Positions 6,516 to 64,000 of a stretch of 64,000 nt of DNA are shown here, in pieces. The notes beneath the pieces were generated by a model, which was given only the letters and a program-made list of their open reading frames with translations, searched no databases and had not been told where the DNA came from. Each line of letters opens with the position of its first letter. Within the stretch, counting starts at the first letter, position 1. The position numbers and the translations under genes are program-made. Source of the DNA: a virus; the IMG/VR virus record IMGVR_UViG_3300045988_079322. The stretch is one strand, 5' to 3'.

Positions 6516-7228
6516 TGAAATGGTCAGAAATTCTCCCTCAAGACGCGTTGAATTTAAGTGTTCAACTTGAAAATTATGCTTTGGAAGAGCGTTCAAGAGG
6601 GAAAGTTTTATTTCCAGAGTAGGATAAAATTTTTCGAGCACTTAATCTCACGCGCCCTGAAGATGTAAAAGTTTGTATCGTTGGGCAAGATCCATATCAT
6701 ACTCCAGGCGCAGCCAACGGTCTGGCATTTTCTATTTCTGATGGAAGTCCAATTCAACCTTCTTTAAGAAATATTTTTAGCGAGCTTAATAGCGACTTAG
6801 GGCTGCCAATCCCGCAGTCAGGAGATTTAACGCCTTGGGCTGAACGAGGAGTATTACTCATTAATGCTAGTCTAACCGTTTATGAACATCAAGCTAATAG
6901 TTGTGTTAATTGGGGATGGAATAAGTTTACAACAGCAATATTAAAGGCTGCTACCCAGTTACCGCAGCCTATTGTTTTTATGCTATGGGGAGCTAATGCT
7001 CAGAATTTATTGAAGGATTTAAATTCTAGTCCTATGGTATGGGACGGTCCGGGAATAGCAAGAGAGAATTTAATTAAGAAAGCCTATATTTTATCCTCCC
7101 ATCCAAGTCCCTTTAGTGTAAGTAAGCCATGTAAGGGAACTCCCTCGTTTAAAGGTAGTAAACCATTTTCAACAGCGAATAGTTTATTGCTTTCAATGGG
7201 AGGAGAACCTATTGACTGGACTCTATAA
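6516..7228 (+). CDS. ung: uracil-DNA glycosylase (family 1), one internal TAG
   Basis: GQDPYH and HPSPFS motifs; track ORF 6980..7228 is C-terminal part in same frame; TAG at ~6620 aligns with Gln of E. coli Ung YPPQKDVF. Confidence 0.8.
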
Positions 7229-7249
7229 GATGGGAGATAAAGCATATAG

Positions 7250-8554
7250 ATGATAGATTTAAGAGAATTAAAAAATGATTTTGAATCTATACTTGTTCAT
7301 TCTCAGGATTACCCCTTTTATTTAAACTCGGAGAATTTGATTTCTCAATGGTTAGAGGCTAAAAGGGATATAATCAACCTTTTTGGTGGAGAGTTGGTAT
7401 TAAGGAGTAAAGAACCAGTTAAGATTTTCTTAACAGAAGAACAGAGAGATAAAAGATTTGAAGAGTTCTTACAGGCTCTTGATGAAAACGGGATTCTAAC
7501 AGAGGAATTTGAATTATTTTTGCGCGTTAATAAAGATGGATTCTTTGATAATAAAGTTATGTTACCTTATCCATCTTTTAATATTCCGTTAGGATCAAAG
7601 CTCTCAAAATCTTTCAAAAAGTTTCTTAATAGTAATGAGATTGTCAGATGGGCGCAAGACATAGCATCAAGATATATTCAAGAGAATAAAATAGAAGGAT
7701 ATTTATATTTATCTGTTCATCCTATTGATTTTCTTACTATATCAGAGAATAATGAAAATTGGTGGTCATGTCAATCTTTAGACGGGGATTATAGAAGTGG
7801 AAATTTAAGTTATTTAGTAGATAAGACTACAATAGTAGCATATCTATCAAATGGGAAACAGGAATATTTAAAATGTTTACCAAAAGGAATGACATGGAAT
7901 AGCAAAAAATGGAGAATGTTAGTCCATACAGATGGAGAAAGAAATATCTACTACAATAGACAATATCCATATGAATCTAGAGATTTATTATCTAGTGTCC
8001 ATAGTATGTTAGTTTCATTAATAAAAAATGAAATGACTGAACCGATTGATTATGGCTTTAAAGTAATCCAATCTCAATGGAGTAGCGGGATGCTTACATA
8101 TAATCAGATCAACGCAGGTGGACGAACTTTTGACACTAGAGACGTGATTGATACAAATGACTATCTCGGTTATTCTGATTTAATTATCTCTAGTACATAT
8201 GCTCCTATTATATCGGTGAGCGATGATAAATTTCATGAGTATGCTGAAAACATAAATAAAAGCAAAAAGATTGAAGAAGTGTTCTTTAATAATGCTTTTA
8301 AAATTAAAATTGGGGAACGACCAATTTGTCCATGTTGTGGAACCGAATACATTAAACGTGAAGATTCATTTCTTTGTGATTATTGTATTTCAGAAAAAGA
8401 GGCAGATGAGGACTTCTTTTTGACTTGTGATAGTTGTTATCGTAGAATATACGATGAAGATGAAATTTATTGGATGGATGGCAGACCATATTGTAAAAAG
8501 TGCCATAATTTAATGCAACAAGAGGATAGATTAATCGAGGAGGACGATGAATAA
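7250..8554 (+). CDS. hypothetical protein 434 aa with C-terminal Cys-cluster zinc ribbon
   Basis: ORF track; CPCCG...CDYC...CDSC...CKKC. Confidence 0.6.
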   Translation: MIDLRELKNDFESILVHSQDYPFYLNSENLISQWLEAKRDIINLFGGELVLRSKEPVKIFLTEEQRDKRFEEFLQALDENGILTEEFELFLRVNKDGFFDNKVMLPYPSFNIPLGSKLSKSFKKFLNSNEIVRWAQDIASRYIQENKIEGYLYLSVHPIDFLTISENNENWWSCQSLDGDYRSGNLSYLVDKTTIVAYLSNGKQEYLKCLPKGMTWNSKKWRMLVHTDGERNIYYNRQYPYESRDLLSSVHSMLVSLIKNEMTEPIDYGFKVIQSQWSSGMLTYNQINAGGRTFDTRDVIDTNDYLGYSDLIISSTYAPIISVSDDKFHEYAENINKSKKIEEVFFNNAFKIKIGERPICPCCGTEYIKREDSFLCDYCISEKEADEDFFLTCDSCYRRIYDEDEIYWMDGRPYCKKCHNLMQQEDRLIEEDDE

Positions 8555-8865
8555 TGGCTAAACGTGGAGATGCAGCTCGTCAAAATGTAATGGATATAAT
8601 TTGCAAGGCTTTTGGAGAAGATTTTGTTGGAATTCAAGATAAGAAAATCTATGTGTGGGCACAAGATGGCGTAAATGGAGAGAAAATTCAATTTGCGGTT
8701 TCTATTACTATGCCAAAGACACCGATTGCGGGTGGTGGAGATAATGCGCCCTCTACATCAAGCTCAGGAGGGGCACCAGCAACTGAGTTTACTCCTACTG
8801 AGTTAGCTCCTGAAGATAAGGCCAAGATCGAAGAGCTAAAAAAGAGACTTGGAATTTTTGATTAA
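8554..8865 (+). CDS. hypothetical protein 103 aa
   Basis: ORF track. Confidence 0.5.
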   Translation: MAKRGDAARQNVMDIICKAFGEDFVGIQDKKIYVWAQDGVNGEKIQFAVSITMPKTPIAGGGDNAPSTSSSGGAPATEFTPTELAPEDKAKIEELKKRLGIFD

Positions 8866-8924
8866 AAATTTTGGGTATGGGTAATTAAATTATTCAGTAT
8901 AAAGTTTAATAATAGTACACTTCC

Positions 8925-8970
8925 CTCACTAAAGAGAGGCGTAAAGAAAAGACTTTAGATTTTACGCCTC
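8925..8970 (+). terminator. rho-independent terminator
   Basis: gagaggcgtaaag...ctttagattttacgcctctc + ttg. Confidence 0.5.
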
Positions 8971-8972
8971 TC

Positions 8973-61888: not shown

Positions 61889-61941
61889 CAATCTTTATTT
61901 TATATGTTATTATATGTATATAAAATAAAGAGGAAATGATT

Positions 61942-62337
61942 ATGAGTAAATGTAAAAACTTTTTAGATTATTTTGATTGGCTTGTAGCTAATTACCAAGA
62001 GCCAATCACTATTCCAGATGAAGTGCAAGAATTTTATAATATTCTTCGCTCACAACAAGATATGCAGGTTGAGAAACCTCTCTTTACAGAAACTGGATTA
62101 CAAATTCTTGAACATCTTCAAAAACATGAGGCGAAATCCTTAAAAGCAAAGGATATTGCAGATGGAATGGAGATTTCCTCAAGAAAAGTATCTGGCTCAA
62201 TCAGAAAATTAGTGTCAGATGGTTTCGTAGAAAAATTTGGTTCTAACCCTGTTGTCTATACCCTGACAGAAAAAGGTAAAAACTTTGATATTGAGAAATA
62301 TAAAGGAGAATTAAGTAATGAGCAAGAAAATGATTAA
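61942..62337 (+). CDS. hypothetical protein 132 aa
   Basis: ORF track. Confidence 0.5.
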   Translation: MSKCKNFLDYFDWLVANYQEPITIPDEVQEFYNILRSQQDMQVEKPLFTETGLQILEHLQKHEAKSLKAKDIADGMEISSRKVSGSIRKLVSDGFVEKFGSNPVVYTLTEKGKNFDIEKYKGELSNEQEND

Positions 62338-63274
62338 TAACACTCACATCGAAGGGTATGTCTATGAACATAAACTTGAAAAGAAGGTTTCTGGAGAGAA
62401 CTCTAAAAATCCTGGAACCGAATTTATTAATGGTATCTTGAGAATTGCCACAGACGATGATATGTTGAATGTTGTCGATGTTCATTTTAGCTATGTAACT
62501 GAGACAACTAAGAATGGTAAAGCAAATTCAACTTATGGAGTTCTTTTGAATATCATTGATGGAAAGATTGGTTCCGTAATGGAGCATGGTAAGGAAAACG
62601 CAGGAAAGATCCGCGTTGATTCCGCTATTGGGCTAAATGAGTGGTACGATAATAACACTAATGGCCATCCTCTTGTAAGTGTCAAGAGAAATGAGGGCGG
62701 ATTCGTCCATATAACTCAAGAGTTGGCAGAAGAAAAGAATCGTGCTACTTTTGATGTCGATATGGTAATTACCGGAGTATTGCGCGCGGAAGCAGATGAA
62801 GAGCGCGATCTTCCTGAGAAGGTTACTGTAAAGGGATGCGTATTTGATTTCCGCGGAGCACTTCTTCCCGTCGAGTTTAGCGTATATGCTCCATATGCAC
62901 CGGAAAAGGCTTTGGATTACTTCGAGAATTTGGGAGCCACTTCTAGCTCTCCTGTCTTTACTAGAGTGCAGGGAATTCAGGTATCTAAGACTGTAGTTCG
63001 TAAAGTTGAGGAAGAGAGCGCTTTTGGTGACTCTAGAGTAAAAGAAGTCCGTAATTCTCAGCGTGATTTTGTAATTAACTGGGCACAGCCTGACATTTAT
63101 GAGTGGGACAATGAGGAAACTCTTCTCGTATCCGAGCTTAATGAAAAGATGGCTGCGCGTGAGGTTACTCTTGCTGAGATTAAAAAGCGTCAGGATGAGT
63201 ATCAAGCAACAAAGGGTAATGCTCTAAGTGGAGCATCTACTGCCGCTCCTGCAAAGGGAGAATATAAATTCTAA
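62318..63274 (+). CDS. hypothetical protein 318 aa (possible ssDNA-binding/recombination accessory)
   Basis: ORF track; adjacent to RecA-like ATPase. Confidence 0.45.
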   Translation: MSKKMINNTHIEGYVYEHKLEKKVSGENSKNPGTEFINGILRIATDDDMLNVVDVHFSYVTETTKNGKANSTYGVLLNIIDGKIGSVMEHGKENAGKIRVDSAIGLNEWYDNNTNGHPLVSVKRNEGGFVHITQELAEEKNRATFDVDMVITGVLRAEADEERDLPEKVTVKGCVFDFRGALLPVEFSVYAPYAPEKALDYFENLGATSSSPVFTRVQGIQVSKTVVRKVEEESAFGDSRVKEVRNSQRDFVINWAQPDIYEWDNEETLLVSELNEKMAAREVTLAEIKKRQDEYQATKGNALSGASTAAPAKGEYKF

Positions 63275-63305
63275 GAAAAGGGAGTTTATCTCCCTTTTCT
63301 TCCCA
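63275..63305 (+). terminator. rho-independent terminator
   Basis: aaagggag ttta tctcccttt tcttccc. Confidence 0.55.
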
Positions 63306-63331
63306 AATATTTTGATAAGGAGCGAATATAA

Positions 63332-64000
63332 ATGAGTTTGTTAGATATTAAGCCTCATGAAGTATCAAGAGATCTGAGAGGTTATTCAGTATTCTTTTAT
63401 GGAGACCCAAAGAGTGGTAAGACCACCATCGCGAGCAAGTTTCCAAAAGCACTTTTACTCGCTTTTGAGAAAGGCTATAATGCGTTGCCCGGAGTATATG
63501 CCTAGCCAATTAATAGCTGGGGCGAATTTAAGAAACTGTTTAGTGAATTAAAAACACCAGAGGTACAAGAAAAATTCCAAACTATTGTAATTGATACCGC
63601 AGACATTGCATACGGATACTGTGAAAAGTTTATTTGTAGCAGAGAAGGTGTCGATACTATTGGTGATATTCCTTATGGAAAAGGGTATGCACTTGTAAGT
63701 TCAGAGTTTGACGAAGCGATTCGTAAAATTCTACAACTTAACTATGGTCTTATTCTTATTTCTCACGCAAAAACAAAGACAGAAAAGAACGCAAAAGGAG
63801 AGGACGTTGCGTCATAGATTGTTCCCACTCTTGACAATAGAGGAAGATTAATTTGTGAGAGAACTTGTGATATTATCGGATATTCTCGTTCTGTTACTAA
63901 TGAATCTGGAGGAACAGAAACAAGACTCTTTATGCGTGGAACTCCGCAGTATGTTGCCGGTTCTCGTTTCAAGTATGTACCAGAATCTATTGAATTTACA
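63332..64000 (+). CDS. RecA-like/Sak4-type recombination ATPase, partial, with >=3 TAG
   Basis: Walker A GDPKSGKTT; frame open through TAGs to window end. Confidence 0.5.

Follow-up and report, generated by a model that had tools for sequence, protein, structure and literature searches.

Partial reassignment of the TAG codon, most likely to glutamine, in an uncultivated phage encoding its own CUA suppressor tRNA

Results

The locus and its relatives

The DNA considered here, a stretch of 64 kb from IMG/VR virus record IMGVR_UViG_3300045988_079322 that was analysed as a whole and is called the window below, carries a set of genes that stay open only if the TAG codon is translated, and a gene for a putative suppressor transfer RNA (tRNA) with the anticodon CUA. 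The window looks like phage DNA. Its G+C content is 37.7%, and nearly all of its genes are on the plus strand from about 4.4 kb on, as are all the features located below. It encodes tail-fibre-like genes, two cell-wall hydrolases, topoisomerase II, DNA and RNA ligases, the thymidylate synthase ThyX and uracil-DNA glycosylase (UDG), as well as genes for the synthesis of nicotinamide adenine dinucleotide (NAD), a protein like the major vault protein (MVP) and a DUF2828 protein. Its RNA inventory, established with ARAGORN and Rfam, consists of about 30 tRNA genes, a transfer-messenger RNA (tmRNA) and a ROOL RNA.

The source is an uncultivated phage of about 115-150 kb, with many relatives in IMG/VR on contigs of 114-148 kb. 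A nucleotide search of GenBank phages gave no match to the window, and protein searches of GenBank phages with the GyrA-like and DUF2828 proteins found identities of 40% or less only; as judged by these searches, the lineage has no close GenBank phage. The host, for which lysin similarity was the sole guide, is probably one of the gut Clostridia. Two contigs of about 148 kb, assigned by binning to metagenome-assembled genomes of Eubacterium and Oscillospiraceae, have the same lysin with in-frame TAGs. When related contigs were followed further, genes of replication and nucleotide metabolism were encountered and those for capsid, portal and terminase were not; the use of TAG was scored without these core structural genes.

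Genes that contain TAG codons in frame

When every plus-strand frame was read through TAG, 61 tightly packed genes were obtained between 4.5 and 64 kb. They contain 55 in-frame TAGs in 20 genes, 18 of which are firmly supported. An earlier note on this DNA had counted dozens of such genes, which is too many, and had set the start of their range at 6516, downstream of the first TAG-bearing gene (5590-6447, one TAG at 5875). The alignments of relatives cross this first TAG; the true start of the gene is probably near 5671, and a promoter-like site (5618-5646) lies within the 5' end of the open reading frame (ORF). It is followed by the UDG gene (6515-7228), a Pfam UDG member with one TAG (6620) that is crossed by PDB alignments over residues 17-237. 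The tRNA array contains an HNH endonuclease gene (10722-11243) with four TAGs (10848, 10878, 10896 and 11091), in which Pfam HNH_2 spans the TAG at codon 124; its relatives have 9.6 TAG per 1000 codons. A small ORF (16711-16962) with one TAG at codon 9 (16735) is of low confidence: no homologue of it was found, and its start may lie downstream of its TAG.

A tail-fibre-like operon (21877-26355), recognized by Mtd_N domains (Pfam) and a weak match to a PHROG tail family, comprises five genes with one (21877-22134), two (22143-22718), one (22736-23800), three (23818-24990) and three TAGs (25018-26355); their relatives have 3.7-16.6 TAG per 1000 codons. A terminator-like hairpin (26359-26388) follows the operon. 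Directly 3' of the suppressor tRNA, a small basic protein is encoded with one TAG (27891-28208, TAG 28107). Single TAGs are also found in the genes for an RlaP-type nucleotidyltransferase (34575-35372, TAG 34827, spanned by the Pfam domain at 8-162) and for the RNA ligase (37637-38911, TAG 38513, spanned by the Pfam domain at 184-394). A relative 99.6% identical has CAG at the RlaP position; at the ligase position Gln is the commonest residue in relatives (18/37), and the ligase gene of a 99.3%-identical relative differs by TAG/CAG swaps at two sites. A homing-type endonuclease with zinc-finger-like repeats (38998-39870) has six TAGs.

The lysis region begins with a gene carrying one TAG (48561-49022, TAG 48603). 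It includes a cell-wall enzyme with NAGPA and SPOR domains (50601-51455), whose two TAGs (50832 and 51081) are both spanned by Pfam NAGPA (52-206), codon 161 being Gln in 8/8 relatives. The endolysin, with Phage_lysozyme2, Amidase_2 and SLH domains (51458-52864), has nine TAGs, and the holin-like membrane protein (52866-53207) has one near its C-terminus (53148), where read-through is weakly supported. Further downstream, a GIY-YIG homing endonuclease (60070-60981) carries 11 TAGs, 10 of them within the N-terminal 145 codons; its Pfam domain spans the TAG at codon 238, and TAG makes up 32% of the Gln-type codons of its relatives. The range of one to nine read-throughs given previously is too low for this endonuclease. 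ThyX (61262-61888, Pfam Thy1 E = 5e-47) has three TAGs (61334, 61400 and 61520). The last gene, an AAA_24 (Sak4-like) ATPase cut by the end of the window (63332-64000, Pfam 17-213), has two (63503 and 63815), and at its codon 58 Gln is found in 19 relatives and TAG in three.

Read-through of TAG

The 60 complete genes end with TAA (45) or TGA (15) and never with TAG, which is in part a matter of construction, as the frames had been read through TAG. We also relied on a strand-specific measure that does not assume recoding, namely the open stretch that follows the stop of standard-code ORFs of at least 80 amino acids. On the plus strand, the median number of further open codons was 65 after TAG as against 7.5 after TAA and 6 after TGA, while on the non-coding strand the corresponding values (24.5, 17 and 17) do not differ between the stops. 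This measure replaced a cruder comparison of six-frame ORF totals with each stop removed in turn, which was uninformative since removal of TAA gains most in AT-rich DNA.

Conserved domains also continue across the TAGs. The Thy1 model is matched over positions 11-191 of 191 and spans three of them; Phage_lysozyme2 and Amidase_2 span eight, AAA_24 and NAGPA two each, and the RNA ligase, RlaP, GIY-YIG and HNH domains one each. In addition, tblastn alignments to more than 250 related loci run across TAGs. For three TAGs near C-termini (22054, 28107 and 53148) a role as stop is conceivable in principle, though the first two are crossed by alignments. Two others (20269 and 20347) lie outside genes, in or beside a tRNA-Tyr, and one (41282) is upstream of a likely start codon. 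With TAG as a stop, translation would cover only 30% of the 5,079 codons in the 20 genes, and under the standard code these genes fall into 75 pieces. The nucleotide at +4 after TAG shows no bias; with no special context of this kind, TAG behaves as an ordinary sense codon. Collectively, the open stretches, the domain matches and the gene ends bear out the earlier proposal that many frames pass through TAG to end at TAA or TGA. On this comparative evidence, about one third of the genes use UAG as a sense codon, and TAA and TGA are the only terminators.

As to their position, 41 of the 55 TAGs are located in the first 60% of the gene length (roughly p = 0.03, an estimate), a lean that would leave truncated products non-functional.

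The amino acid encoded by TAG

The window proteins, with X at each TAG, were aligned by tblastn to the related loci, which gave 1,007 de-duplicated positions opposite TAG. Gln was the commonest residue there (24%), followed by Lys (15%), TAG itself (11.5%) and Glu (8%). With substitution frequencies taken from the same alignments, the maximum-likelihood identity of TAG is Gln (lnL -2048, against -2483 for Lys and -2615 for Glu), the gap being inflated since the relatives are phylogenetically non-independent. The reverse comparison gave the same answer: Gln positions of the window stand opposite TAG in relatives at 18 per 1000, and any other residue at 3.9 per 1000 or less, so that Gln aligns with TAG at 4.6 times the rate of the next residue. 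Nearly all in-frame stops of the relatives are TAG.

The cleanest evidence for Gln comes from lysin homologues of Clostridia genomes that have no in-frame stop at all. Among these, codons 40, 146, 225 and 274, which are TAG in the window, are Gln in 11/11, 10/12, 40/40 and 41/42 homologues, respectively. Between strains 88-99% identical, 15 of the 18 differing sites that involve TAG are swaps with CAA or CAG; two of the others are TGG and one is GAG. Taken together with the likelihoods and the reverse comparison, these data strongly support the assignment to Gln made in the earlier note.

The individual motifs invoked for this assignment fared unequally. In the homing-type endonuclease, the motif VEFDGP-TAG-H proved sound, since codon 230 is Gln in 21 and TAG in nine of 32 aligned relatives. 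In ThyX, the TAG at codon 87 was said to occupy a conserved Gln; this is true of the Corynebacterium and Mycobacterium structures, whereas Thermotoga has Glu, and the other two TAGs of the gene do not fall at Gln, their aligned residues being Phe in one case and Arg or Glu in the other. For UDG, the proposed Gln is found in the Coxiella structure, while four other structures have Ser, Val, Arg or Gly. The PDB alignments of these two enzymes, with Gln at one of three ThyX TAGs and in one of five UDG alignments, are too distant to serve as proof of the residue.

The suppressor tRNA

The candidate decoder is a 75-nt tRNA with anticodon CUA (27798-27872), detected by ARAGORN, which labels it 'Pyl', and by the Rfam tRNA model (61.6 bits). 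It was not cited in the earlier note. Its canonical cloverleaf, with a short variable loop and a 5-bp anticodon stem, is the minimum-free-energy fold; U1 and U72 are unpaired, G73, G10 and U35 are present, and the CCA end is encoded. U35, G73, G10 and a weak or open 1:72 pair are identity elements of Escherichia coli tRNA-Gln used by glutaminyl-tRNA synthetase. Identical or nearly identical copies occupy the same place in relatives L030-L034, and 41 tRNA(CUA) genes were found in the first 109 related loci; those checked in DUF2828-anchored loci lie upstream of the DUF2828 homologue. Among the 23 distinct suppressor sequences of the phage group, all have G73, none has G1-C72 and 13 have the U1/U72 mismatch. 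The Gln and Trp tRNAs of these phages share G73 and a weak 1:72 pair, whereas their Glu, Lys, Leu and Tyr tRNAs have A73. From these features we infer that the suppressor is charged with Gln by host machinery.

The suppressor is no point mutant of the phage's own Gln tRNAs, tRNA-Gln(UUG) (18900-18973) and tRNA-Gln(CUG) (19609-19683), both of which have A1-U72 and G73: it is identical to the former at 52/75 positions. Global similarity gave no clear parent isotype. The best scores in the window fell to Ser and Leu tRNAs of class II, which is an artefact: they have T-arm and acceptor bases in common with the suppressor. PHROGs attributed no translation-related function to the neighbours of the suppressor tRNA.

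More distant relatives have, upstream of their DUF2828 homologues, tRNA(CUA) genes of 89-95 nt in which the variable arm is long and forms a stem and the acceptor end is Gln-like, e.g. with U1-A72 and G73 (loci L035, L039/L059, L048, L075, L076, L080, L102, L106 and L108).

Promoter matches and a shared upstream element

Promoters were called as sigma-70-type consensus matches only. The sole 12/12 match in the window (27326-27354; TTGACA, 17 nt, TATAAT, with TG before the -10) precedes a TAG-free gene (27367-27705) that is itself followed by the suppressor tRNA, and a weaker match (27753-27781; TTCAAA, 17 nt, TATAGT) stands directly before the tRNA. In the 61-gene set, a sigma-70-type match falls within the 60 nt upstream of nine genes, none of which contains a TAG (hypergeometric estimate, p ~0.02).

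A conserved element of about 60 nt, with the core CTGCTCCGAGTTTCCG, occurs exactly twice in the window (nhmmer E = 2e-18 and 2.5e-20). Copy 1 (21721-21779) is placed about 100 nt upstream of the tail-fibre-like operon, and copy 2 (48426-48483) upstream of the block 48561-53207 that contains the two lysin genes together with the holin-like gene. In relatives both copies are retained, with their positions unchanged with respect to the neighbouring genes. RNA folding of the element predicted no structure (z = +1.8 and -0.4). The element is a candidate late promoter or regulatory site. Another motif considered as a late promoter, TATAAAG, was rejected, as it also precedes TAG-free genes and partly overlaps ribosome-binding sites.

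Distribution of TAG between gene classes

TAG accounts for 11.5% of the Gln-type codons of the window and is unevenly spread: the observed heterogeneity among genes was reached in none of 20,000 permutations, and 41 genes are TAG-free against 29 expected. The TAG-free state noted before for topoisomerase II, DNA ligase, the NAD genes, MVP, DUF2828, AAA ATPase, PhoH and SPFH was confirmed in every case. In the aligned codons of relatives, TAG is virtually absent from DUF2828 (0/29,923), MVP (1/17,702), GyrB (0/12,721), GyrA (1/21,388) and the ligase (0/5,101). On the other hand, it reaches 21.6 per 1000 codons in GIY-YIG, 12.5 in the lysin, about 10-11 in HNH genes and about 4-17 in tail-fibre-like genes. 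In such TAG-rich genes of relatives, 20-50% of the Gln-type codons are TAG, and the partition is kept across relatives 55-80% identical. The gene-class-specific recoding put forward in the earlier note is thus confirmed by these comparisons as a real split that is conserved in relatives.

The split is not simply one of early versus late genes, since replication and nucleotide-metabolism genes also carry 1-13 TAGs. Just beyond the window, on a near-identical contig, TAGs are found in genes for a RecJ/DHH-like protein (13), deoxynucleoside monophosphate (dNMP) kinase (three), DnaB-like and RecD-like helicases (two each), NrdG (two) and DNA polymerase (Pol) III alpha (one), while primase and NrdD have no TAG.

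Beyond the window, heavily recoded genes on related contigs encode a RecJ/DHH-like protein (13 TAGs), a RuvC-like resolvase (nine) and an Ig-domain protein (eight); they are located at 16474-18225 of L110 and at 11417-11896 and 18293-20089 of L260.

Discussion

A model for partial recoding

The reading that we favour, with a probability of about 0.88, is that of a code 15 phage whose own tRNA(CUA) would act as decoder, TAG-free genes being expressed at once and TAG-bearing genes depending on the suppressor; the role of the tRNA and the functional consequence are both deduced. The tRNA at 27798-27872 would be charged with Gln by the host's glutamine-charging machinery, as proposed on the basis of G73, the unpaired U1/U72, G10 and U35, and would then compete on the ribosome with host release factor 1. 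TAG-free genes would be translatable at once by an uninfected, standard-code cell. Among them would be the genes for DUF2828, MVP, topoisomerase II, DNA ligase and RNase H, those of NAD synthesis, the majority of the RNA-repair genes and the gene that immediately precedes the suppressor tRNA; a sigma-70-type promoter match stands before many of these. TAG-bearing genes, in turn, would yield full-length protein only after the suppressor tRNA accumulates. Since the yield would fall roughly as the suppression efficiency to the power of the TAG number, genes with 6-13 TAGs would be held back most, namely the endolysin, the GIY-YIG and HNH homing endonucleases and, in relatives, the RecJ-like and RuvC-like nucleases, whereas the delay would be slight for replication genes with 1-3 TAGs. 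We infer from this pattern that the TAG number may set an expression threshold.

A more elaborate version is put forward tentatively, as a possibility that we ourselves rate rather low. A graded timer would be combined with a transcriptional switch: a host-type promoter would supply the suppressor early, read-through would rise slowly, and expression would start with the genes of 1-3 TAGs and end with those of 6-13. If so, the shared 60-nt DNA element would additionally gate the two late operons, and the unpaired U1/U72 would be a design feature that aids Gln charging by making the CUA tRNA a good substrate of the host enzyme.

Several observations weigh against the favoured reading or some part of it. 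Its link to the timing of suppressor expression, suggested in the earlier note, is the hypothesis published for such phages, and two findings fit it poorly: the suppressor tRNA sits behind an early-looking promoter (a consensus match), and TAGs are carried by ThyX, UDG and the Sak4-like, DnaB-like, Pol III alpha, NrdG and RecJ-like genes. Gln charging is argued from alignments and identity elements, and among the latter the 3:70 pair of the suppressor is C-G and not the G-C of E. coli tRNA-Gln; G2-C71 is present. The relatives used for the alignments are not independent phylogenetically, and the ranking of Gln was robust to de-duplication. No release factor or aminoacyl-tRNA synthetase gene was found among the window proteins scanned. 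Finally, two TAGs stand where close relatives have a conserved TGG (Trp).

These two are the TAG at 28107, in the gene 27891-28208, and that at 60334, codon 89 of GIY-YIG; at 28107, Trp is found in 11/14 distinct relatives. Both have the look of TGG-to-TAG nonsense mutations that read-through of TAG makes tolerable.

Alternative explanations

The most serious alternative accepts that the phage tRNA decodes TAG as Gln and holds the uneven spread to be non-regulatory. CAG to TAG mutations would be filtered by selection for translation efficiency: genes of high or early output would purge TAG, as suppression is leaky, and low-output or mobile genes would tolerate it. This view would suit the free exchange of TAG with CAA or CAG between close strains, the lack of a special nucleotide context at TAG and the variable use of TAG among replication and nucleotide-metabolism genes. 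It would equally suit the seemingly early-type transcription unit of the suppressor and the selfish nature of the most TAG-rich genes, which are homing endonucleases. What it explains less readily is a very sharp partition (0-1 TAG in tens of thousands of codons of some genes, and TAG as 20-50% of the Gln-type codons of others) that is kept among relatives of 55-80% identity, or a dedicated upstream element common to the lysis cassette and the tail-fibre-like operon. Moreover, according to the available text of Borges et al. (bioRxiv 10.1101/2021.08.26.457843), other recoded clades have independently evolved the bias towards lysis genes and homing endonucleases that is seen here. On balance we consider this alternative doubtful, while taking it seriously.

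Much less probable is a reading of TAG as another amino acid (Lys, Glu, Trp or pyrrolysine). Opposite TAG, Lys and Glu follow Gln in frequency; their likelihoods nonetheless belong to a field in which every other residue lies at least 435 lnL units below Gln, and the phage tRNAs for Lys and Glu differ from the suppressor in having A73 and, in most cases, G1-C72 (in some G-U or C-G). Trp could draw on the two TAGs that are TGG in close relatives and on the G73 and weak 1:72 pair which the suppressor has in common with Trp tRNAs, yet it is, with Gly, Phe and Ile, among the four worst candidates. Against the 'Pyl' label of ARAGORN, the suppressor is an ordinary cloverleaf and not the atypical structure of pylT, and Pfam scans of 40 proteins contained no PylS or PylBCD-type gene. 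The near-invariant Gln at the four lysin TAGs, in homologues free of in-frame stops, speaks against all of these candidates.

It is likewise very improbable that the host itself reads TAG as Gln, with the phage following its code and the tRNA as an accessory. To our knowledge, no bacterium with TAG read as Gln has been described. The host was deduced only from the similarity of lysins, which leaves some room for this idea; in more than 40 loci from Clostridia genomes, among them Oscillospiraceae and Lachnospiraceae, and from metagenome bins, however, the lysin homologues have no in-frame stop. Furthermore, two thirds of the phage genes avoid TAG wholly. Some recoded phages do follow recoded hosts, e.g. 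with code 25, but about 90% of the genes use the recoded codon in phages of recoded hosts, as stated in the available text of the same preprint (bioRxiv 10.1101/2021.08.26.457843).

Finally, the idea that TAG is a true stop and the affected genes are split, have become pseudogenes or stem from faulty assembly or sequencing, to which their fragmentation under the standard code might lead, is already refuted by the comparative data: the genes are interrupted by TAG only and never by TAA or TGA, same-frame homology continues past every well-sampled TAG, dozens of independent assemblies have TAG or Gln codons at the same positions, a matching suppressor tRNA is encoded, and essential genes such as ThyX, the lysins and the replicative helicase of relatives are among those hit.

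Relation to known recoded phages

The same recoding pattern, and the model that goes with it, have already been described for alternatively coded gut phages. In the available text of Borges et al. (bioRxiv 10.1101/2021.08.26.457843), from which the comparisons in this paragraph are drawn, code 15 gut phages are crAss-like, Lak and 'gemstone' clades. The present phage has in common with them an in-frame TAG at Gln and a phage-encoded tRNA(CUA), the strongest bias in lysis genes, tail genes and a homing endonuclease, and a variable recoding of replication genes; their predicted hosts are standard-code Firmicutes or Bacteroidetes, and the probable Clostridia host of the present phage would be of this kind. 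The share of recoded genes, 33% here, falls within their 26-71%. A point of difference is that the scan of the window detected no 'code-change module', be it release factor 2 or an aminoacyl-tRNA synthetase. Features that go beyond their description are the 60-nt element before both TAG-rich operons, the perfect sigma-70-type match before the suppressor unit and the conserved unpaired 1:72. The window holds no terminase gene, hence the phage was not placed in the named clades. Translation of TAG as Gln was confirmed by metaproteomics in two crAss-like phages, according to the available part of a further study (PMC9523058).

A parallel case of similar genome size is phAss-1, a human-gut phage of the proposed Phassvirus genus (about 133-138 kb; Babkin et al. 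2023, PMC10607447). Phages of this group carry 28-36 tRNA genes including 2-3 tRNA-Sup(CTA) and have no dedicated aminoacyl-tRNA synthetase; in phAss-1, TAG occurs in about 28% of ORFs (41/147) and the genome was re-annotated with translation table 15 (PMC10607447). In contrast to its 2-3 tRNA-Sup(CTA), one suppressor tRNA is present in the 64 kb examined here. Given no nucleotide similarity and only distant protein similarity to GenBank phages, the present lineage is different from phAss-1.

In E. coli, the supE (glnV) tRNA-Gln(CUA) competes with release factor 1 for UAG and inserts Gln there. The phage suppressor shares with it the CUA anticodon, U35, G73, G10 and a weak or open 1:72 pair. 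It differs in being phage-encoded, in having a full U1/U72 mismatch instead of a U1-A72 pair and a C-G at 3:70, and in serving a systematic recoding of 55 codons in the window rather than the rescue of a mutation.

The phage is therefore a further clear example of code 15 phages and no new kind of system. The additions made here are modest: how sharp the partition is and how well it is conserved, the early-type promoter ahead of the suppressor, the common upstream element and the conserved 1:72 mismatch. Indeed, the recoding is partial and very clean, some genes having 0 TAG in about 30,000 aligned codons and others 20-50% of their Gln-type codons as TAG. Standard-code annotation of the phage and its many IMG/VR relatives breaks about one gene in three, lysins, tail fibres, ThyX and nucleases among them, and such contigs consequently need annotation with table 15. 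Many natural variants, an identified suppressor tRNA and candidate promoters make the published idea of late or lytic control directly testable in phages of Clostridia.

Neighbouring genes, codon usage and other RNAs

The genes for the DUF2828/DUF7788 protein and the MVP-like protein are neighbours (28894-33229), with only a small ORF (30528-30791) between them. Downstream of these lies an RNA-repair-like set (34575-47331) comprising RlaP, metallophosphatases, the RNA ligase, a Thg1-like enzyme and an AAA_33 kinase; the NAD-synthesis genes are at 39954-44515. They all have no TAG or next to none. For Gln, three genes rely on CAG alone, namely DUF2828 (28894-30414; 0 CAA, 11 CAG), the RNA ligase (37637-38911; 0 CAA, 11 CAG) and the SPFH gene (47483-48379; 0 CAA, 16 CAG), while most other genes favour CAA and the overall count is 265 CAA to 157 CAG.

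A full-length ROOL RNA (18994-19589; Rfam RF03087, 350 bits) is inserted in the tRNA array between tRNA-Gln(UUG) and tRNA-Gln(CUG). The tmRNA (16370-16685; Rfam 120 bits) encodes the tag peptide DNDYFENYLAA, and its tag frame ends with TGA. Two tRNAs were detected by Rfam only and missed by ARAGORN: in one (19856-19974) the anticodon region is enlarged by a 57-nt insertion and CCA is not encoded, and the other (20249-20333) is a weak class II tRNA (32 bits) with the Tyr anticodon GUA. Bacterial Ser tRNAs carry a long extra arm; a 74-nt tRNA with anticodon UGA called as Ser (10170-10243) has a short variable loop and no such arm, together with U1-A72, G73 and an anticodon stem made of A and U throughout. 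Its neighbour tRNA-Ile(UAU) (10013-10107), 95 nt in length, does have a long extra arm.

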